This document shows positions 48,402-63,491 of a DNA stretch of 64,000 nt, one piece after another. Below the pieces are notes generated by a model. The model saw only the letters and a list, made by a program, of their open reading frames with translations, was not told where the DNA came from and ran no database searches. The stretch comes from a virus (Duplodnaviria; Caudoviricetes). The translations under genes were made by a program, and so were the position numbers. Each line of letters starts with the position of its first letter. Position 1 is the stretch's first letter. The stretch is from IMG/VR virus record IMGVR_UViG_3300011517_000006, positions 1 to 64,000 of that record, one strand, 5' to 3'.

Positions 48402-50030
48402 GTGATCCGCGTCGCCCTTTACGCTCGCTACAGCTCGGACCGACAGAACGAGCGCTCGATCTCCGATCAGTTGAGCCTCCTGATCCAGCACGCCGGCGCC
48501 AAGGGCTGGGCCGTCGTCGGCACCTACACCGACGCCGCCATTTCCGGCTCGGCCATGGCGAATCGCCCCGGGCTTCTCGCAGCGCTCGCTGCGGCCGAAC
48601 GGGGCGAGTTCGACCTGCTGCTGGCGGAAGACGAAGACCGTCTCGCCCGCAACCTGGAACACTTGGCGCACGTGGCCAACCGCCTGGCCGACATCGGCGC
48701 CGGCATCGCCACCCTGTCGACGGACCGGGTCCAGGACATGCACGTCGCCTTCAAGGGGCTCATCGCTCAGGACTTCATTCGCAACCTCAGCATGAAGACC
48801 AAGCGCGGTATGGCCTCCAATGCGGAGAAGGGGCTCGCGACCGGCTCGCGCCTTTACGGCTATCGCTCCCAGCCCGGCGGCGCGGTCGAGATTGTGCCCG
48901 ACCAGGCCGAGGTGGTCCGGCGCATCTTCTCCATGTACGTCAACGATCGCATGTCCTCGCGCGAGATCGCTGAACGCCTCAACCGCGACAGGATACCCTC
49001 TCCGGCCGGCCGGGAATGGAACGCCTCATCCATTCAGGGCTCGCGCCAGCGCGCCAACGGCATCCTGCACAGCGAGATCTACGCCGGCGTAAAGGTCTAC
49101 AACCGCGTCGAGATGCGAAAGGACCGCCAGACGGGGCGTAAGATCACGATCTGCAAGCCGCCCAGCGAGCACAAGCGCATCGACGTCCCCCACCTGGCCA
49201 TCATCGACCAGGACCTGTGGAACGCCGCCCGGCAGCGCCTGGACAGCCGGCAGACGGCCGACCCTTCGCAGCGCGCAAGCCTGCGGCGGCGCCCGGGCCT
49301 GCTGTCCGGGCTGACCAAGTGCGGCTGCTGCGGGGCGTCCTACACCTCACTCAGCCAGGGGCGCCTGGTCTGCGCCGCCTATCGTGAGAAGGGCGTGTCC
49401 GCCTGCAATAACAACCGCCACGTCAAGCGCGCCGAGATCGAGCAGCGCGTGCTGGACGGCCTGCGCACGCGGCTGCTGGCCCCCGAGGCCATCGCCGCCT
49501 ACGTCCGCGCCTATCACGCCGCCTGGGCCGAGCAGGCCGCCCAGGTCGAAGACCGCCGCCGCCCTCTGACGCGGCGGCTGGCCGAGGTCGAGCGCGCGAT
49601 CGAGCGCGGGGCCGAAGCCCTGCTCTCCGGTGCGACGGCGGCCGCCGTCATCGGCAAGAAGCTCGAAGCCCTCGAAATCGAACAGGCCCAGCTCAAGGCG
49701 ACCCTTGAACAGCTCGACGCTGAAGGCGCGCCGCCCGTGCAGCTGCACCCGCGCGCGGCCGAGAACTACGCCCGCAAGATCGAGCAGCTCCAGGCGCGCC
49801 TGGCCGAGGCGGCCGGCAGCACCGACGACGCGGACAGAGACCTGATCGGCAGCGTCAGGGGCCTGATCCAGAAGGTGGACATCGAGCCGATCAACAAATC
49901 GAGAGGATCGCCGGTGCGGGTCACCTTGCACGGTGACCTCGCCCGGTTCGTTCTCCCGCAACACCCACCAGCTAGTGGGTGTGCGTTGGTGGTTGGAGGC
50001 GGGATCGAACCGCCGACCTGTGGGTTATGA
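48402..50030 (+). CDS. int: Large serine recombinase (integrase of prophage 1)
   Basis: ALYARYSS catalytic Ser, DRLAR, recombinase domain, LLSGLTKCGCCG zinc ribbon, coiled coil; 3' end runs through the att core. Confidence 0.95.
   Translation: MIRVALYARYSSDRQNERSISDQLSLLIQHAGAKGWAVVGTYTDAAISGSAMANRPGLLAALAAAERGEFDLLLAEDEDRLARNLEHLAHVANRLADIGAGIATLSTDRVQDMHVAFKGLIAQDFIRNLSMKTKRGMASNAEKGLATGSRLYGYRSQPGGAVEIVPDQAEVVRRIFSMYVNDRMSSREIAERLNRDRIPSPAGREWNASSIQGSRQRANGILHSEIYAGVKVYNRVEMRKDRQTGRKITICKPPSEHKRIDVPHLAIIDQDLWNAARQRLDSRQTADPSQRASLRRRPGLLSGLTKCGCCGASYTSLSQGRLVCAAYREKGVSACNNNRHVKRAEIEQRVLDGLRTRLLAPEAIAAYVRAYHAAWAEQAAQVEDRRRPLTRRLAEVERAIERGAEALLSGATAAAVIGKKLEALEIEQAQLKATLEQLDAEGAPPVQLHPRAAENYARKIEQLQARLAEAAGSTDDADRDLIGSVRGLIQKVDIEPINKSRGSPVRVTLHGDLARFVLPQHPPASGCALVVGGGIEPPTCGL
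49975..50002. repeat. Right att junction of prophage 1
   Basis: attP arm GTGGGTGTGCGT followed by the 16-bp core shared with 1594-1609. Confidence 0.92.
49987..50030 (-). tRNA. 3' half of a tRNA with CAT anticodon (Met or Ile2); att fragment of prophage 2
   Basis: TCATAA-CCCAC-AGGTC-GGCGG-TTCGATC-CCGCC-TCCAACC-A-CCA; the 5' half is absent. Confidence 0.9.
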
Positions 50031-51203
50031 AGCCGCCGCGCCCGACCCCTTAGACGATTGTTCTTCCTCGCCCTTTTCCGGACCCTTGGGCGATGCTCCG
50101 GGACTATTCCGGGAGAGCGCCGCAAGCCCGGCTTTCACGTCGTCCTCGATCGCGTGGGCGTAAACCATCGTCGACTTGATGTCGGCATGGCCCAGGAGGC
50201 GCTGCGCCAGACGAAGGTTGCCGGTCTCCCGCAGGATCTGCATGCCGCTGTGGTGGCGCAGGTCGTGGATGCCCCGCAGGCCCTTGGCGTCCTTCAGCCC
50301 GGATCGCTTCATCGCCCGGCGCATGGCGATAGCGGCTCCAGAGGGCTTGAGCGCCTTCAGGATGACCTTCCCGGCCGGCCCGCGTAGGCGCCGCTCGCGA
50401 TACCAGACCGTTTCCAGCTTCGCGGCACGCGCCCGGCCAAGACGAGCCGATAGCATCGCCGCATCCTCGGGCAGCAGGGGGATGACGTGATCGTCGCCGC
50501 CCTTCCGATCTCGAAGGCGGACGCGGGCGTTGTTGATGTCGGCCACGTCGAGGTCGTCGAGCGAGAAGAACAGCTCCGACAGTCGACAGCCGTAGCGGGC
50601 GGCGAAGCGGATCAGGTCGTGCCAGTGGGGCAGAACCTCGGCCTCGACCCGCTCCAGCTCATCCCCGACGAGCTCCTTGGGCCGGGGCTTAGGCTCCTTG
50701 AGGCGCAGGGCCTCCCAGTCGATCTCCGGAAGCCTGGCGCCCCATGCCTTCCGTGCGCGGTTCAGGATCGGCCGGAGGGTGTCGATCATGTCCCGGTTCA
50801 CCGTCGAGTTCGACGGCAGGTATTCCTTCGCCCCCTTGGCCTTGGACTTCACGATGCCCTGGCCGCGGCGTCGCTCGATGGCGGTGGCGATGTGGTTGGT
50901 GGTGATGTCGCAGATGCGTGTCCCTGCCCCCACGACGGCCATCATGCGCTCGATCCGGGCTTCCAGACGGGCGCCGCCCTTCAGCGTCGTGCCGCGCTCG
51001 GCCCACCAACGGCCGGCGGCCTCGTCCAGGGTCATCTGCGAGGCGTCATCCAGTTCGCCCGTCGCCGCCTTGGTGCGGATGCGGCGTTCGACCTCCTCGG
51101 CCTTGCGCTTCGTCTCCACGCCGGTCGAGCCGTGGTAGCGCCTGCCCTTGTATTGGAAGTCGTAGGCCCAGTACCGGCTGTTCTTCGGCAGGTAGACGGA
51201 CAT
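50025..51203 (-). CDS. int: Tyrosine integrase of prophage 2
   Basis: YGCRLSEL, K(GG), HDLRH, LGH and Y catalytic set; N-terminal YDFQYKGRRY arm-binding-like segment. Confidence 0.93.
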   Translation of the reverse strand: MSVYLPKNSRYWAYDFQYKGRRYHGSTGVETKRKAEEVERRIRTKAATGELDDASQMTLDEAAGRWWAERGTTLKGGARLEARIERMMAVVGAGTRICDITTNHIATAIERRRGQGIVKSKAKGAKEYLPSNSTVNRDMIDTLRPILNRARKAWGARLPEIDWEALRLKEPKPRPKELVGDELERVEAEVLPHWHDLIRFAARYGCRLSELFFSLDDLDVADINNARVRLRDRKGGDDHVIPLLPEDAAMLSARLGRARAAKLETVWYRERRLRGPAGKVILKALKPSGAAIAMRRAMKRSGLKDAKGLRGIHDLRHHSGMQILRETGNLRLAQRLLGHADIKSTMVYAHAIEDDVKAGLAALSRNSPGASPKGPEKGEEEQSSKGSGAAAS

Positions 51204-55301: not shown

Positions 55302-56198
55302 ATGGGATTTCTGTCGAAGCTGTTCGGGTCGCCATCGAAGCCAGCCGCGCCATCTCCGATCTCGGCATGGAGCGTAGACTTTGTGGTCGTCGACGTTGAA
55401 ACAGCCTGCTCTCGCTCCAGCAGCATTTGCCAGATCGGGATCGTAGGCTTCCGCGAGGGCAAGGAGGTCGAGGCATTCGAAACCCTCGTTGATCCGCGCG
55501 ACGAGTTCGATGATTTCAACGTCCGCCTTCACGGGATCGGTCCGAACCACGTCCGAGGCCGACCGACATTCTCCGCTCTTCACTCCGTCGTAAACGCGCG
55601 CCTCGGCGGTCAGATCACCGTGGCTCATTCGAGCTTCGATAAAGGCGCGCTTGCGTCGGCCTGCGAGCGCCACGCTCTACCGAACATTTCAACTACATGG
55701 CTTGATAGCGTCATGGTTGCGCGAAGGGCCTGGCCTGAGCTGTCCAGTCACCGGCTGAACCTCCTGGCGGACTATCTTGGGATAGAGCATCGACACCACG
55801 ACGCGCTCAGCGATGCGCGCGCTGCCGGGATGGTGATCGTGAAGGCAATTGATCACACCGGCCTAAGCCTAGCCGACTGGCTGACGCCGCGCGCTCACGT
55901 GGTGCCTTCTCTCAAGCGCGCAGGCGGGGCGGGACCGCTCGCTGGGCACAGCGTGTCATTTACAGGCGAGTTTTCAGTAACCAAGGCAGAACTCGCCGAC
56001 CAACTGGCGGCCGCTGGTGCTGCGACGACCCCTGGGCCGACGAGGAAGACGACGATTTTCGTGGTCGGACAGCAGGACCCAGCGTCGCTGGCCGGGAAGG
56101 CAAAAAGCAACAAGCACCTCAAGGCCGAAATGCTTCTTGCCTCTGGCCAGCACATCCAGATTGTGGACGAGGCCGGCCTTCGAAAGCTGATGTCTTAG
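55302..56198 (+). CDS. DEDDh 3'-5' exonuclease fused to a BRCT domain
   Basis: VVVDVET, AHSSFD, DS and HHDALSDA motifs; C-terminal SVSFTGEF...AAGA..T..PTRKTTIFVVG. Confidence 0.88.
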   Translation: MGFLSKLFGSPSKPAAPSPISAWSVDFVVVDVETACSRSSSICQIGIVGFREGKEVEAFETLVDPRDEFDDFNVRLHGIGPNHVRGRPTFSALHSVVNARLGGQITVAHSSFDKGALASACERHALPNISTTWLDSVMVARRAWPELSSHRLNLLADYLGIEHRHHDALSDARAAGMVIVKAIDHTGLSLADWLTPRAHVVPSLKRAGGAGPLAGHSVSFTGEFSVTKAELADQLAAAGAATTPGPTRKTTIFVVGQQDPASLAGKAKSNKHLKAEMLLASGQHIQIVDEAGLRKLMS

Positions 56199-57115: not shown

Positions 57116-57359
57116 TGCAACGCCCCTCTCGCCTTCTCCCGCTGCTCCTGAGCCAGACGCCACCACTTCGGGTCGCGCGTCTCCCGCGCCGCGACGCTGC
57201 AGGCTCCGGCCGCAACTCCATGGCGGATCGCCCGCAAGATTTCTGCGGACGGCTCCGGTCCGCTGTTCGCCCTGTCCAACATCTCAACCTCCAATCCTGT
57301 GAGGCGACATTCGGCCAACGCCGGTCGCCCGTCACCTTGCATGCACAAGGCTCTTGGCA

Positions 57360-57803
57360 ATGAACGACTTCTCCCCCGCTCTTCTGAAGGCGCACTTCGG
57401 CCAGCTGGTCGACGCCGTCGGCACCCAAGAAGCGGCCGCCGCATTCCTCGGCGTCAGCCGTCAGCGCGTCGGCCAGTTGATCAGCACGGCGAACAACGAC
57501 CTGCCGACCTGGGCGCAGGTGTGGAAGCTGGAAAAGGTGACGGGACAATCGCTGGTCTTCGGCGCGTTCGGTCGCATGACGGCGGGCGAAGAGGCCCACA
57601 CCGGCGCCCTAACCGCTGCAGTCGAAAGCACCGCCACGGCGACCCGCGCCCTTCAGGCCGTCCACGCGGCCAAGGCCGATGGCGTCATCGAGCAACACGA
57701 GGTCGAGGCTGTGCGCGACGCGGCGCGAGACAACCTGATCGCCGCCCAGCGCCAATACGACGAGAGCATGCGCTTGCGCTCGACAGCGGGAGCTGATGCA
57801 TGA
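57360..57803 (+). CDS. CII-like regulator
   Basis: AAAAFLGVSRQRVGQL HTH; position after cro. Confidence 0.6.
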   Translation: MNDFSPALLKAHFGQLVDAVGTQEAAAAFLGVSRQRVGQLISTANNDLPTWAQVWKLEKVTGQSLVFGAFGRMTAGEEAHTGALTAAVESTATATRALQAVHAAKADGVIEQHEVEAVRDAARDNLIAAQRQYDESMRLRSTAGADA

Positions 57804-58804
57804 TCCAGATCGACCGGATCACGACCTTCGACCGCGTCCGTCAGGCGGATCGCAAGCAGGTTGAAGCCTTGGCGGAAAGCATCCGCGAGGTCGGGCTGCT
57901 CAACCCCATCGCGGTGGCGCCGGATGGCGAGGGCTATGCCCTGATCGCCGGGATGCACCGGCTGGAAGCTGCGCGCCTGCTCGGCTGGACGGAAATCCCG
58001 GCCACCGTGCTGGCGCTGGATCAGCATCGCCGGATCATCGCCGAGTGCGACGAAAACCTGTGCGCGCCGTCCCTGACGCCCGCCGAACGCGCTGAGTTCA
58101 CGCGCCGCCGTAAGGCTGCATATGAGGCGCTGCACCCGGAGACGCGGGCTGATGCGCCAAAGGGCAATCAATATGCTTCTCGCCAAGTTGGCGACAAGCA
58201 ACCGGCGCCCCGCTTCACCGCCGATACCGCCGCCGCCACGGGCCAATCTGAGCGGGCCGTTCAGCGCGACGCCGAGCGGGGCGAGAAGGTCTCTGACGAA
58301 GCTCTGGCGCTGATCAAGGGGACCCGCCTCGACACCGGGCGCTACCTCGACAGCATCAAGAACCTGTCGCCCGCGGATCAGGTGGCGAAGGTGGAAGCGG
58401 ACCTGACACCGCCCTCTGAAGGCGTCGAAAAACGGGACACGCACCCCGCCGAACCTGTCGAGCCCATCGACCCCGCCGAAGCCAAGGCTCGTCGCGAGAT
58501 CGCCCAACTCCCCGACGAGGCCAAGGTCGACGAGATCGTCGGCCTACGCGCTGAAGTCATCGACCTCCGCAAAGCGGTCAAGGAACATAAAGCCAACACC
58601 GCCAGGCTGAAAACCCAGTTGAAGGGCCACGAGGGCGACAAGGACGACACGATCCGGGCGCTCCAAAGGAAGCTGGACCACGCGAACAGCGAGATGTTCC
58701 GCGCCAAGGAGGAGGCTGCGCGCGTCCTTCGCCACAACCACGTCCTGAAGAAGGAAATCGACAAGCTCAAGGCTGAGATCGAGAACCAGGTGTTCCAGCT
58801 TTGA
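57800..58804 (+). CDS. ParB N-terminal domain protein with coiled-coil tail
   Basis: LAESIREVGLLNPI, LIAGMHRLEA, ECDENL.....LTPAE. Confidence 0.85.
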   Translation: MIQIDRITTFDRVRQADRKQVEALAESIREVGLLNPIAVAPDGEGYALIAGMHRLEAARLLGWTEIPATVLALDQHRRIIAECDENLCAPSLTPAERAEFTRRRKAAYEALHPETRADAPKGNQYASRQVGDKQPAPRFTADTAAATGQSERAVQRDAERGEKVSDEALALIKGTRLDTGRYLDSIKNLSPADQVAKVEADLTPPSEGVEKRDTHPAEPVEPIDPAEAKARREIAQLPDEAKVDEIVGLRAEVIDLRKAVKEHKANTARLKTQLKGHEGDKDDTIRALQRKLDHANSEMFRAKEEAARVLRHNHVLKKEIDKLKAEIENQVFQL

Positions 58805-59052
58805 GCATCGTCGAGCGCATCAGAGCCCATGGCGGCGAGGTCGGACGGGACCGCTGGAACATCAGCCTCCGCAAGGGACGGCTGGATGCGACGGCGCTCG
58901 CCTGGATCGCGAAGCACCGGGGCCAGCTGATGCGCGAGATCTGGCCTGAATACGACGCCTTCGAAGAGCGCGCCGCCATCATGGAGTACGACGGCGGGCT
59001 GCCCCGACAGGAGGCTGAGCGCGCCGCATACCGGGAGGTGTGCGGATGCTGA
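58801..59052 (+). CDS. Hypothetical phage protein
   Basis: FEERAAIMEYDGGLPRQEAE motif. Confidence 0.7.
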   Translation: MSIVERIRAHGGEVGRDRWNISLRKGRLDATALAWIAKHRGQLMREIWPEYDAFEERAAIMEYDGGLPRQEAERAAYREVCGC

Positions 59053-60614
59053 CGTTCGTCGACGCCAGGGAGATTGCTCTGCGGCCCTATCAGGGATCGG
59101 TGGTTGAGCGGCTGCGCGAGAAAATCCGGCAGCGCATCAAGCGGCTGATCCTGTGCGCCACGACCGGCGCGGGGAAGACGCTGATCTCGGCTTACCTGAT
59201 CAAAGAGGCGGCGAAGAAGGGCAGCTATGTGCTGTTCATCGTCGACCGCGTCGCCCTCGTGGAGCAGACCAGCGCCGTCTTCGATGAATACGGTATCCCC
59301 CACGGCATCGTACAGGGCATCCACCAACGGTGGGCGCCGCGCGAAAACGTGCAGGTCTGTTCGGCCCAGACGCTCGCTCGCCGCAGCCTGCCGCGCGACC
59401 CCGACCTGATCATCGTCGATGAGGCACACTGCCAGTTCAAGGCCACGATCGAGTTCATGAACCGCTATCCAAACGCGGTGAAGATCGGCCTGACGGCCAC
59501 CCCGTTCACCAAGGGCATGGGCCAGCACTGGGACGGCATGGTCAACGCGGTTTCGACCCGTCAGTTGATCAACGACGGCTTCCTGGTCGAGCCCAAGATT
59601 TTCGTCGCCAAGAGCCCCGGCGACAGCGAGCTGGGTCGCAACAGCTTCGGCGAGTTCAGTGACCAAAGCGCCGCAGACGCCGGGATCAAGATCGTCGGCG
59701 ACGTGGTTCAGGAATGGATCGCCAAGACGCGCGAGCACTTCGGCGGGCCGGTGAAGACCATCGTATTTAGCCCGACAGTCGAGCATGGGCGCGAGCTATG
59801 CGCCGCCTTCGCCGCCGCCGGGTTCAACTTCCAGCAGATCAGCTATCTCGACGACGAGGACGAGCGGATGGAGCGGATCGCCGAGTTCCGCCGCCCCGAC
59901 AGCTTGATCCACGGCCTGATTTCCTGCGGCGTCCTGACCAAGGGTTTCGACGTGCCCGACGTTCGGGTCGGCATCTCCTGCAAGCCCTATCGCAAGAGCC
60001 TCTCCAGCCACATGCAGGAGATCGGCCGCGTGATGCGATCGCATCCCGGTAAGGACGTGGCCCTTTGGCTCGATCACTCGGGCAACTTCGAGCGGTTCGC
60101 CCTGGACATGTACGACGTCTGGGAGAACGGGGCGGGCGAACTGGATAAGGCCGAGAAGCGCGACAGCGTGGCCCGGGAGCGGAACCAGAAGGCCAGAGAA
60201 AAGGTCGTCTGCCCCGAATGCTCAGGCGCCCTGCGCGGCACGACCTGCACCGCCTGCGGCTGGGAGAAGCCCGCGCGGTCGGGCATCCAGGCCGTCGAGG
60301 GCGAACTGCGCGAATTTGATGCGGGCGCGATGGGGATGGAGGCGCGTCCGGGGCTTCGCGCCGAATGCCTGAAGAACCCCAAGGCGGTGTATAACGCTGC
60401 GCTCTGCTACAGTATCGACCAAAGCCGCAGCGGTGACTGTGAGGCCGCCCGGAAGCGCGCATATGCCATCTGGCGCGGGGTCTACCCGAGCAGCAAGCCG
60501 CCCTATCACTGGTTCGACATGGCGACGGTCGCTCCCGACGCCGGAGCCTATGCGCTGGTGGATCGCGAGGTCCTGCGGTTCCGCAAGCAGAGCAAGATGC
60601 GGAGGGCTGCATGA
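59046..60614 (+). CDS. SF2 DEAD/DEAH helicase with C-terminal zinc finger
   Basis: TGAGKT, DEAH, TAT, KGFD, QEIGRVMR; CPEC...CTACG. Confidence 0.92.
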   Translation: MLTFVDAREIALRPYQGSVVERLREKIRQRIKRLILCATTGAGKTLISAYLIKEAAKKGSYVLFIVDRVALVEQTSAVFDEYGIPHGIVQGIHQRWAPRENVQVCSAQTLARRSLPRDPDLIIVDEAHCQFKATIEFMNRYPNAVKIGLTATPFTKGMGQHWDGMVNAVSTRQLINDGFLVEPKIFVAKSPGDSELGRNSFGEFSDQSAADAGIKIVGDVVQEWIAKTREHFGGPVKTIVFSPTVEHGRELCAAFAAAGFNFQQISYLDDEDERMERIAEFRRPDSLIHGLISCGVLTKGFDVPDVRVGISCKPYRKSLSSHMQEIGRVMRSHPGKDVALWLDHSGNFERFALDMYDVWENGAGELDKAEKRDSVARERNQKAREKVVCPECSGALRGTTCTACGWEKPARSGIQAVEGELREFDAGAMGMEARPGLRAECLKNPKAVYNAALCYSIDQSRSGDCEAARKRAYAIWRGVYPSSKPPYHWFDMATVAPDAGAYALVDREVLRFRKQSKMRRAA

Positions 60615-61531
60615 CCCTGTCGCTGACGGAAGCGCTGCATCAGGCCTGTGCGGTGGTAGGCATCGAGCCGCCCAAGCGTCGGCTGTCCCCGGGCCAGTGG
60701 GTGCGCACGGACACCAAGGGCAAGAACGGCCGCGACGACGCCGCCGTCCTGATCTTCGACGACGAGAACGGCGGCATGGTCTGGAACCACCAGACCGGCG
60801 CCAATCACCGCTTCAGCCTTGCCGGGTCTGGCCAGGTGCGCCGCGATCCCGAAGCTGAACGCCGTGCCCGCCGTCGCGAGGCCGCCCGGCTAGCCGAGCA
60901 GCAAGAGGTCGAGCGGATCTGCGCGGCCATCGTGCGCGGCTGCCGCCAAGACAAGCATCCCTATCTGGAGAAGAAGGGCTTCCCTGACGAGCTGGGGCTG
61001 GTCTGCGACGTGCCCAGCAAGTTCTTCCCTGAGACGCCCTTCGGCGAAGCCCTGGCCAAGGCTCTGCCGGGCATCGGCCCCTTCCTGATCGTTCCCGGCC
61101 GCATCGGCGGCAAGGTTACGACGGTGCAGTTCATCACCGCCGACGGGGCGAAGAAGAACATCCTGCGCGGAGCCCAGGGCGGCGCCAGCCACAGGATCGC
61201 CACAGGGCGCGATACGTGGGTGTGCGAGGGCATCGCCACGGCCCTGAGCGTCAGGGCGGCCCTGCGGCTCCTGGGGGTGTCTGCGACCGTTCTGAGCGCC
61301 TTCTCGGCCTCTAACGTGGAGAAGGTGGCTGCGGGCATCCCTGGCGCTCGCATCGCGGCTGACCACGACGCCCCGAACCCGCATCTCGAGGGCAAGGGCG
61401 CAGGCGAGTTCTATGCGCGCCGCTCGGGCTGCGCATGGACCATGCCGCCGTCCATCGGCGACTTTAACGACATGCACATGGAGCGCGGTCTGAGGGCCGT
61501 CGCACTGCATCTCAGGGAGGCGCTGGGATGA
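60611..61531 (+). CDS. Toprim-domain primase
   Basis: HPYLEKKG, VQFI, VCEGIATA, IAADHD and GDFND motifs. Confidence 0.85.
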   Translation: MTLSLTEALHQACAVVGIEPPKRRLSPGQWVRTDTKGKNGRDDAAVLIFDDENGGMVWNHQTGANHRFSLAGSGQVRRDPEAERRARRREAARLAEQQEVERICAAIVRGCRQDKHPYLEKKGFPDELGLVCDVPSKFFPETPFGEALAKALPGIGPFLIVPGRIGGKVTTVQFITADGAKKNILRGAQGGASHRIATGRDTWVCEGIATALSVRAALRLLGVSATVLSAFSASNVEKVAAGIPGARIAADHDAPNPHLEGKGAGEFYARRSGCAWTMPPSIGDFNDMHMERGLRAVALHLREALG

Positions 61532-61544
61532 CGTGATGCAGGAT

Positions 61545-61995
61545 CATTTCGCGATGTGTTTCTCGCGAGCAATCAGGCGACGGCTAGGGCCGAAACCTGA
61601 TCGGCATGGGGATGGTAAGGCCCCGGTGTGCGCGCCGAAAGCGCACGAGATAGGCCCTCTGCAAGTAGCACCCGCTCTGATGTGTGGCGGAAGCGAACGG
61701 GTCACGAAACACCAGCCGCCTTACCCACACAGGACGCACCCGCAAGAGGTGCAGCCGCGTACGTCTCGCCATCGAATGACGTGCAATGCGGTGCCGCCAG
61801 GTCTCCGGAAGGAGAGCGAAGCGACGGCCATGGATCGACAGCCTGACCCCGATCCAGCGCAGACCAGCGCGAGCCGATTTGATGGAGTGTTACTGCGTGT
61901 CCCAGATGACCCTCAGTTCAGAAACACACTTCGTCCCATAGCAGGGCGAAGTGTGCCCAGCGGAACCCGAGAGCCCTAGTTCAGAAACTAGTTCA
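61545..61995 (+). ncRNA. Candidate structured non-coding RNA (or hairpin-rich origin)
   Basis: At least eight stem-loops including GCAA and GGAA tetraloops; the overlapping ORF looks spurious. Confidence 0.45.
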
Positions 61996-62015
61996 ACAAG
62001 GAAAGGAGAGCAGTA

Positions 62016-62291
62016 GTGGTCGCTAAGAAGAAGCTCAGCCGGAAGGAGCGTGAAGCTTCACGCGAAGAGGCTGCTCGGCGGTTTGACGAAATCGCCTCCC
62101 TCGTCAGCGAGGCCAGAAAGAACGACGAGATTGGATCGCATTACAGCCTTTGGATCGACCAACACCGGCGCGTCGAGTGGTGGCCTGGAGCTCAGCACTG
62201 GCGTTGCAGCACCCAGACGGATCACTTCGGCCCAATGGATGATTTGCTGACGTGGCTTCGGTCTGAGACCGCTCCAGGCCGGAGCATTTGA
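62016..62291 (+). CDS. Hypothetical protein
   Basis: AAGGAG SD; GTG start. Confidence 0.6.
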   Translation: MVAKKKLSRKEREASREEAARRFDEIASLVSEARKNDEIGSHYSLWIDQHRRVEWWPGAQHWRCSTQTDHFGPMDDLLTWLRSETAPGRSI

Positions 62292-62295
62292 CCTG

Positions 62296-62502
62296 ATGGT
62301 CGAGCGCATCACGCTCATGCAGCAGTACGCCGTGAACGAGCAGCGGCGCCGGGGGAGAACGGACCGTCAGATCGAGAAGATCGTCGGCCTTCCCCACGGC
62401 ATCCTCTCTCGCCGCTTCATCGTCGTCGACGACCGCGACCCCCTCCCCCGGCGAGGCCCCAGCGCCAGCCCCCGCACCCTTCACCGATACACCCTGTTCT
62501 GA
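62296..62502 (+). CDS. Hypothetical small protein, possible HTH
   Basis: RTDRQIEKIVGLPHGILSR. Confidence 0.5.
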   Translation: MVERITLMQQYAVNEQRRRGRTDRQIEKIVGLPHGILSRRFIVVDDRDPLPRRGPSASPRTLHRYTLF

Positions 62503-62516
62503 AAGGCCCTCCCCTC

Positions 62517-63296
62517 ATGGGCAAAGCCACCAAACCCCGCCTGAACCCCCGCTCCAAGGGCGGTCGCCCCCGTCAGCAGGGCGAGCGCACCAAGGGCGGA
62601 CGCCTGAAGCACGCCCCGAACGAACGCGTCCTGCAGATGCGGGCCATCTTCGGCGTCGACCACATCGGCCAGGCCTTCTCCCCCATCCAGATCGCGCTGA
62701 GGAACGGCTGGCTGAGCGAAGCCGACTGCCGAACCGCCGCCGAGTTCGCATCGCTTTACGCCGCCGCCGGTATGGGTCGCAGCAGCATCAGCCTGTCGGC
62801 TGGCATGGAGGTGAAGCCGGGAGCGGATACGTCGGGCGATGTGACCGCCGCGTCGTTCTTCGCCACCCTGCCGGATCGTGAGGTCGCCGAGATCTGGGAC
62901 GCTGTGTTCACCGACGATGGCGGCCCTGCTCTGGGTCGAGAAGAGGCCGCAGCCCGCGCCATGAAGCGCTGGAAGCTGGCCTGCGCCGCCATGTCGCCCG
63001 ATCAGCGCGAAGAGGTGCACAACGTCTGCATCCTCGACAGCTTCCCGCAGTGGATCATCCAGCGGGCGCACGGGCACATGGAGACGAGCTGGGAGAGGAA
63101 GCGCGACCTGCTGATCGCCGGTCTACGCGCTATTCGGGCAGAGCTTCATCCGCCCAAGGGGAAGCCGGAGAAGCAGCCGGAAACAGCGGTCGCGTCTCCC
63201 CGTCCCCGAGCCCAGGTCGAGCGCACGGTCTATGTCGATGAAGACGGCGAACCCCTGTTGGAGGTCGAGCGCGTCGTCCGTCGACCAGCGGCTTGA
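62517..63296 (+). CDS. Hypothetical phage protein (late-regulator position)
   Basis: Typical codon usage; lies between the replication and packaging genes. Confidence 0.65.
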   Translation: MGKATKPRLNPRSKGGRPRQQGERTKGGRLKHAPNERVLQMRAIFGVDHIGQAFSPIQIALRNGWLSEADCRTAAEFASLYAAAGMGRSSISLSAGMEVKPGADTSGDVTAASFFATLPDREVAEIWDAVFTDDGGPALGREEAAARAMKRWKLACAAMSPDQREEVHNVCILDSFPQWIIQRAHGHMETSWERKRDLLIAGLRAIRAELHPPKGKPEKQPETAVASPRPRAQVERTVYVDEDGEPLLEVERVVRRPAA

Positions 63297-63491
63297 CAGG
63301 CGGATCGAATAGGAAGATAAGCCTAGGTGCAGTTATGTCAGGGTGGCACGAAATCCTGACCGAGAGACCCCGGAGCATCATGCGGCCGGGGTTCTTCGTA
63401 TCCGGCTCCCTTAAGGGCGAGAGGGCGGCAGGCTTAGGGTTGGGGGTTCCCGGCCGGGTCGGCCGTCTGCCCCCTTGGGCACACCATCATC

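Follow-up and report, generated by a model that had tools for sequence, protein, structure and literature searches.

The window analysed here, a stretch of 64,000 nucleotides, is part of an 88,475-base provirus record from IMG/VR. From about 50 kb onward it is prophage, with all early genes on the + strand. Domain and family searches identified a tyrosine integrase gene on the - strand (50025-51203) and, on the + strand, genes for a DnaQ-like exonuclease (55302-56198), a CII-like activator (57354-57803), a ParB-like protein (57800-58804), an SF2 helicase (59040-60614) with weak similarity to PriA/N' and RadD, and a Toprim-type DNA primase (60611-61531; Pfam Toprim_3, E 5.9e-07; PHROG DNA primase families, E 1e-28). 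The primase stop codon occupies 61529-61531, and 17 nt past it begins a structured element, here called class 1 (61548-61991, core about 61548-61970, + strand), which is supported by an nhmmer profile and by covariation and is present in a single copy in the window. Behind it, on the same strand, lie a small ORF without a family match, orf91 (62016-62291), then orf68 (62296-62502) and orf259 (62517-63296), and another ORF starts at the window end. Scans of the neighbouring genes recognised none as an initiator gene, and no rolling-circle Rep gene was found among the genes scanned in this phage group.

The ribosome-binding site of the next ORF lies within a few tens of bases past the element. 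A consensus scan covering one promoter type detected neither a promoter-like nor a terminator-like site from the primase gene to the next gene, and it gave no sigma-70-like site on the two strands around the element, so that no site of these kinds delimits a discrete RNA. Since nothing of this sort brackets the element, it is expected to be transcribed within the early/replication operon transcript, an inference from operon context for which there are no RNA data, since no run recorded as RNA covers 60700-62500. The 195-nt gap behind orf259 (63297-63491) contains CCCCGG, 12 nt and CCGGGG at 63368-63399, followed by UUCUUCGU. This hairpin is weakly terminator-like and could terminate the early operon containing the element; it went uncalled in the consensus scan, which allows loops of up to 8 nt.

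An open frame of 148 codons, ORF148 (61533-61979, + strand), overlies the element and has a GTG start right behind the primase stop, which would suit a real protein gene with merely incidental hairpins. The earlier note, which was made from the sequence alone, had remarked that this frame lacks the local codon bias, and its GC3 is indeed 0.60, against 0.85-0.86 in the helicase and primase genes. No Pfam domain was found in it. Compared with L003, the nearest distinct homolog, the region is 86% identical in nucleotides and only 57% identical as amino acids, and the L003 primase next to it is 95% identical in amino acids to that of the window. The share of indel runs whose length is not a multiple of three ranges from 4 of 5 to 15 of 16 over 16 homologs, and in L020, L021 and L060 none of the three frames is free of stops across the element. 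The homologs keep the pairings described below and not the ORF. Judged by these comparisons, ORF148 is an open frame by chance and no gene, and the class-1 element is non-coding; these comparisons have already refuted the protein-gene reading.

A primase-based scan of IMG/VR yielded 33 loci, and homologs of the element were collected with an nhmmer profile and three pattern scans, the first with the pattern ATAGNC..TTNNNCNCACNNGAC..GGGCGAAGTG and the last with a looser form. Pattern matches in L046, L053, L056, L057, L059, L061, L063, L064 and L066 were due to chance and were dropped after nhmmer. About 23 distinct class-1 sequences are known from viral (IMG/VR) contigs, metagenome contigs and prophages in two Rhodobacteraceae genomes, Defluviimonas sp. 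KMU-169 and Phaeovulum sp. NW3, and the profile matches the element with E values of 1e-53 to 1e-117 in 20+ loci. A blastn search with three family members against 50,697 phage records revealed no class-1 carriers among cultured phages, the sole match being the primase gene of Paracoccus phage Shpa, and the window element had no match among 72,556 plasmids.

The helicase-primase pair lies directly upstream of class 1 in every locus for which upstream sequence is available. The spacer between primase and element is usually shorter than 70 nt (260 nt in L041), and primase identity extends from 99% to as low as 35%. The downstream genes are not conserved and include the orf68 type, a 75-aa basic ORF, and 129-aa and 155-aa ORFs; in the window, orf91 intervenes between the element and orf68. 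In L017 the element is 73% identical to that of the window and the primase 52-55% identical, and in L021 a 100-nt block of the element is 82% identical and the primase 36-37% identical. On these alignments the element is conserved beyond its neighbours. All 21 loci with a full-length primase match (at least 36% identity) have in this slot either class 1 or a second element, class 2, which is described below.

Covariation was assessed in a main alignment of 17 homologs (A3) and in a wider alignment (A5) that adds four distant members with primases about 35% identical. In the 17 sequences, 86.6% of the cells in the modelled helices are standard pairs, compared with 34-41% in controls in which the 3' partners were slid by 1-3 columns. 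The earlier note had proposed covariation as the test of its reading, and the pairings do covary: both sides change in 45 of 95 modelled pairs, and the covariation score of 0.327 (0.05-0.09 in controls) was attained by none of 500 shuffles. Taken alone, the two pseudoknots and the long-range helix of the model (PK1, PK2 and P15) are 94.4% paired, against 28-41% with slid partners, and the picture is the same in A5. Folding energy is far less informative. The + strand has a predicted minimum of -182 kcal/mol (z = -1.65, matched by 5 of 100 shuffles), and a better predicted fold is obtained for the - strand (z = -3.35), so that the single sequence by itself proves nothing. As a prediction from aligned sequences, the class-1 fold nonetheless has comparative evidence that we consider decisive.

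The fold model started from RNAalifold, and the alignments were then read by eye. Of its 15 helix elements, all given here in window coordinates on the + strand, two are hairpin-loop pseudoknots and one is a long-range helix. The first hairpin, P1 (61549-54/61563-68), has an 8-nt loop, is 87% paired and shows changes on both sides in 3 of 5 pairs. It is followed by P2 (61572-77/61596-601; 75% paired, both-sided changes in 4 of 6 pairs), which holds the poorly aligned P2a (61581-84/61589-92; 59% paired). Domain I would then comprise P3 to P6, closed by a loop pseudoknot. The GGGG/CCCC hairpin P3 (61608-11/61621-24) is 88% paired, its closing pair being G-C, C-G or A-U, and its loop carries the 5' strand of PK1, in which GGUAAG pairs with CUUACC (61614-19/61720-25). 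PK1 is 98% paired, with changes from C-G to U-A and from G-C to C-G or U-A. P4, GUGCGC/GCGCAC (61628-33/61641-46), has three pairs changed on both sides and up to four pair types per position. The invariant joints GACAUAG and AGUAGC precede P5 and P6; P5 (61653-57/61699-703; 89% paired, with a C-G to U-A change) encloses P6 (61668-76/61686-94; 87% paired).

Domain II would comprise P7 to P14, closed by the long-range helix P15 and holding the second loop pseudoknot, and the strand CUUACC-CACAC would link the two domains. P15, CACAC/GUGUG (61726-30/61951-55), is 100% paired in 17 and in 18 sequences, and its second pair is A-U, G-U or G-C. Within the domain, the hairpins P7, GCACC/GGUGC (61736-40/61748-52), and P9, ACGUC/GACGU (61761-65/61778-82), each show both-sided changes in 4 of 5 pairs; P9 has a 12-nt loop, and its stem, judged by eye, is 5-8 bp long in every lineage. 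In PK2 the P9 loop strand CCAUCGAA pairs with UUUGAUGG (61769-76/61878-85), with 88% pairing and both-sided changes in 6 of 8 pairs, or 7 of 8 on the wider alignment. P10 (61791-92, 61795-97/61816-18, 61821-22) has a conserved GC/AA internal loop and a near-invariant U-G pair, and bears the tip hairpin P10a (61802-06/61811-15); the two are 94-100% paired. The P10a tip has a GNRA loop, with the loops GGAA, GCGA, GAAA and GAAU occurring on a covarying stem, and is missing in subgroup B. P11 (61831-37/61850-56), with four pairs changed on both sides, has a 12-nt loop, ACAGCCUGACCC, that is invariant within subgroup A, and P12, GCGC/GCGC (61857-60/61867-70), is 72% paired with two to three pairs changed on both sides.

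P14, UUCG-CCC/GGG-CGAA (61930-37/61944-50), is 100% paired and sequence-invariant with only wobble variation, and GGGCGAAGUG is invariant in all members. Its loop varies from 3 to 8 nt, a length variation that favours a hairpin over a double-stranded palindromic operator. Almost no variation is seen in P14, P15 and the joints GACAUAG, AGUAGC, GGAC and GAACC, and the other stems covary freely; the sequence-invariant core consists of the P14 hairpin, P15 and the adjoining joints. A 3' hairpin (61976-61991) is variable and cannot be aligned across lineages. Two CACAC strands, at 61925-61929 and 61726-61730, compete for the one GUGUG at 61951-55; the distal strand can pair with it in 100% of homologs and the local strand in about 76%, and this competition may represent a conformational switch or alternative pairing. 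For the loop pairings PK1 and PK2, covariation cannot tell intramolecular from intermolecular contacts.

Several other pairings were considered. The RNAalifold pairing of columns 83-86 with 458-461 was rejected, as the local P3 hairpin covaries. Complementarity of the P1 loop to GAAACACA (61921-28) is confined to the window and L003 and was left out, as were pairings of the P1 loop with GGA(A/C)GCGAA and of the P11 loop with the 5' strand of P2, the register of which shifts between lineages. A search for additional covarying windows of 4 bp added just one weak helix (61825-28/61873-76).

The nine hairpins and the direct repeat that the earlier note had described are all present in the sequence at the coordinates given there, and homologs support seven of the nine, five as read and two in part. 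Pairing in homologs bears out those at 61608-61624, 61628-61646, 61736-61752, 61803-61814 and 61831-61856, and that at 61572-61601 is supported with the weaker pairing of P2 and P2a given above. The seventh is the inner part of 61925-61955, where the outer CACAC/GTGTG is the roughly 76% local alternative to the fully conserved pairing with 61726-61730. Of the other two, the hairpin drawn at 61682-61730 (GTGTG..GCGG/CCGC..CACAC) fails, with only 13-23% pairing in homologs, and at 61761-61782 the outer ACGTC/GACGT alone holds, its loop pairing instead with 61878-61885. The row of local hairpins is thereby corrected to a two-domain fold held by long-range helices and pseudoknots.

The 11-nt direct repeat, AGTTCAGAAAC, occurs at 61915 and 61978 only. 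The two copies are designated S1, CCCUCAGUUCAGAAAC (61910-61925, + strand), and S2, GCCCUAGUUCAGAAAC (61973-61988, + strand), the latter overlapping the variable 3' hairpin. Each lineage has its own 8-11-nt repeat in the same two places, with the copies 61-70 nt apart and flanking P14 and the 3' strand of P15; examples are AGTTCAGAAAC, AGTTCTGA, AGTTGAA, TCGGCAGGAC, TCGGCATGA, GTGAGCTTG and ACTGCCAA, among others. Mean S1/S2 similarity is 16.2 within lineages, compared with 11.5 across lineages and about 10.7 in shuffles. By this comparison the direct repeat is a feature of the family and not a conserved sequence. Concerted change of two direct copies implies a common partner, either a strand that pairs with one or the other copy or a factor that has a pair of identical sites. 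No inverted copy of the repeat exists in any locus, and complementarity scans gave no consistent candidate for a partner strand of S1 and S2. AUAGGCUC could pair with S1 as well as with S2 in subgroup B but not in subgroup A, and this candidate was left out.

Loci L002, L004-L016 and L018, with primases 56-98% identical to that of the window, lack class 1 and carry class 2, an unrelated conserved structured element of about 330 nt directly behind the primase stop (L004:4919-5300; L002:1598-1980; L006:5296-5700). It is also present in a cultured phage, Paracoccus phage Shpa (KR072689; L062:3701-3997). Both sides change in 21 of its 81 predicted pairs, it has no match in Rfam, and 27 IMG/VR contigs contain a 24-base class-2 motif, which in almost all cases lies 111 nt beyond the primase end. 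Homology between the two classes was rejected, as profile searches in both directions were blank and only the short motifs GACAUAG and AGUAGC are common to them. The annotated Shpa gp47 (L062:3715-3894) overlies class 2, which also overlaps the start of gp48. The gp47 coding sequence is hypothetical and probably not a gene; open frames matching it in other class-2 loci have a low GC3 of 0.55-0.66.

Between the window and L002, homology ends at the primase stop and returns just before orf68, indicating that the cassette was exchanged as a unit between otherwise near-identical phages. The exchanged segment of the window (61532-62283, versus L002:1598-1981) includes orf91, and in L003, L004 and L006 a mini-ORF of 13-15 codons stands just before orf68 in place of orf91. 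Phages with a 98% identical primase and a 96% identical helicase thus carry class 2 instead of class 1, and it follows that neither protein can be a sequence-specific partner of the element. L082 (10924-13760, element on the + strand) has the order helicase, 131-aa ORF, class 2 and SSB gene, without the 306-aa primase, and this order ties the element to the replication module and not strictly to the primase protein. Two further observations concern class-2 loci. An extra 125-aa ORF (GC3 0.71-0.75) lies between primase and class 2 in L006 (4918-5295) and L015 (4918-5295) and is confined to these two. In L009 (1470-3989) the match of the helicase homolog is split into two parts, residues 3-309 and residues 311-524, with about 950 nt between them, and its gene has an insertion that is possibly an intron, an intein or a homing endonuclease.

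Pair statistics indicate which strand of class 1 is folded. The modelled pairs include 109 G-U cells and 47 A-C cells, the latter coming partly from poorly aligned stems; 14 of 17 sequences retain the U-G pair of P10, and one position of P5 is G-U in 8 of 17. The excess of G-U over A-C, together with these conserved wobble pairs, identifies the + strand as the folded strand, which in every locus is the coding strand of all flanking genes. That GNRA loops read correctly on the + strand, taken in the earlier note as a sign of RNA, is borne out by P10a, whose four-base loop is kept on a covarying stem. The strand asymmetry, the agreement with the coding strand and the GNRA tip lead us to consider it quite likely that the element acts as RNA, in the absence of expression data. 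The covariation, the asymmetry, the loop and the lack of a coding signal likewise support the earlier proposal of an unrecognised + strand non-coding RNA.

G-T pairs and stable GNA/GNRA-like loops occur in single-stranded DNA too, and neither covariation nor the strand asymmetry can separate the two. The element could accordingly be folded single-stranded DNA exposed on one strand, namely a primosome-assembly or single-strand-initiation site or a cluster of origin hairpins recognised by the SF2 helicase and the Toprim primase. Class 1 always adjoins the genes of this pair, the helicase weakly resembles PriA/N' and RadD, and no scanned neighbour was recognised as an initiator gene; moreover, the invariance of P14 on both arms is what would be expected of a protein-recognised hairpin, and the lineage-specific repeats flank it like iterons. 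Known single-strand-initiation and primosome-assembly sites are, however, simple hairpins of 50-150 nt, and class 1 has 430 nt, two loop pseudoknots, long-range helices, a conserved internal loop and GNRA tips. The folded strand is also the transcribed strand in every locus, and near-identical helicases and primases work with the unrelated class 2. The hairpin origin or primase site that the earlier note offered as its alternative is weakened by these points and not excluded, and we regard it as unlikely.

The position inside an operon without a promoter or terminator of its own, and close ahead of a ribosome-binding site, would also suit a cis-acting RNA, either a long leader (antitermination of the HK022 put type, or translation control) or a 3' UTR that stabilises the primase message. 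The local GUGUG pairing available in about 76% of homologs could then be a switch. Against this, the downstream gene differs between lineages, leaving no conserved regulated gene, the linkage is to the upstream gene, and 430 nt with about 15 helix elements is far above known put and leader elements. We find such a regulatory RNA improbable.

The class-1 element is non-coding and conserved, its pairs covary, its + strand is the one that folds, and it is linked to the replication module. We conclude, with a probability of roughly three in four, that 61548-61991 (+ strand) encodes a member of an uncatalogued family of structured RNAs of 420-440 nt, occupying a fixed slot immediately behind the helicase-primase pair in a group of temperate phages of Alphaproteobacteria.

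What this RNA does is a more tentative matter. The element may act at or close to the origin of a replicon for which no initiator protein is evident, possibly as a structured origin or primer transcript of the kind of ColE1 RNA II or the T4 ori-transcripts, or as a scaffold for loading helicase and primase. Such a role in the start of replication, in cis, is favoured because the slot is always filled, because the association with helicase and primase persists between deeply diverged members, because no initiator was recognised among the genes scanned, and because unrelated cassettes can be swapped behind the same proteins. The origin role of class 1 nevertheless rests on position alone, and a self-contained cis role in or near the origin is an inference that we put forward only as one possibility. 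It is about equally likely to work on its own in another role, as an RNA or RNP comparable to GOLLD and ROOL. More speculative still, and rather doubtful in our view, is the proposition that class 1 and class 2 are both self-contained, RNA-based origin cassettes that start synthesis without a sequence-specific initiator, with the repeats setting replicon specificity; a folded transcript would then start DNA synthesis through an R-loop or primer, or through loading of helicase and primase. If this is true, tailed temperate phages of Alphaproteobacteria would use an origin logic resembling that of RNA II.

To our knowledge, natural RNAs longer than 400 nt with pseudoknotted multi-domain folds are few. 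New classes of large RNA have each opened new biochemistry, as with ribozymes, RNA-guided enzymes and RNA cages. Class 1 offers a sharp genomic address, an invariant core and an unrelated replacement RNA in near-identical phages, and experimental access exists through class 2 in the cultured phage Shpa and through class 1 in the prophages of the two sequenced Rhodobacteraceae. Should the RNA belong to the origin, the start of replication in these phages without a recognisable initiator would be explained. Small ORFs called over such elements, such as Shpa gp47, are flagged as probable mis-annotations.

Comparison with known RNA families was negative. Rfam 15, which covers GOLLD, ROOL, HEARO, OLE, raiA, RNase P, tmRNA, group I and II introns and riboswitches among others, has no match in 61532-62015 at E<=10 and no consistent match at that threshold in six homologous loci, and ARAGORN found no tRNA or tmRNA in the window. 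In a full-text literature search the element was undescribed, including in Fremin et al. 2023 (PMC10690425) and the Paracoccus virome paper (PMC6536676). As far as the nucleotide data allow, class 1 is a new, uncatalogued family of large pseudoknotted elements, very probably RNA.

Among known systems, GOLLD (RF01998) and ROOL (RF03087) resemble class 1 in being several hundred nucleotides long, multi-helix, pseudoknotted, borne by phages or prophages and found by covariation only, and the function is not known in any of the three. By cryo-EM, GOLLD and ROOL are reported to form RNA-only multimers (bioRxiv 10.1101/2024.12.08.627333). Class 1 differs from both in matching no Rfam model, in its high G+C and alphaproteobacterial hosts, and in its fixed slot behind the primase gene, inside an operon. 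GOLLD and ROOL are also larger.

Signals for single-strand initiation and primosome assembly include the phiX174 n' site, the G4 origin (ori(c)), plasmid ssiA and ssiB, and the sso of rolling-circle plasmids. Class 1 is similar to them as a strand-specific folded nucleic acid adjoining replication genes, of a kind recognised by helicase or primase. These signals are about 50-300 nt of hairpins without pseudoknots, and class 1 belongs to a phage group in which no rolling-circle Rep was found among the scanned genes.

ColE1 RNA II and the phage T4 oriF and oriG transcripts belong to RNA-primed, R-loop origins. Class 1 has no homology with them, and no antisense partner like RNA I, RNase H site or mapped origin is known for it, so that the resemblance is one of position and logic only. 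In both cases a structured transcript of several hundred nucleotides lies beside replication functions in a replicon without an evident sequence-specific initiator, and a self-contained cis element of this kind would account for the exchange of unrelated cassettes behind one and the same helicase-primase pair.
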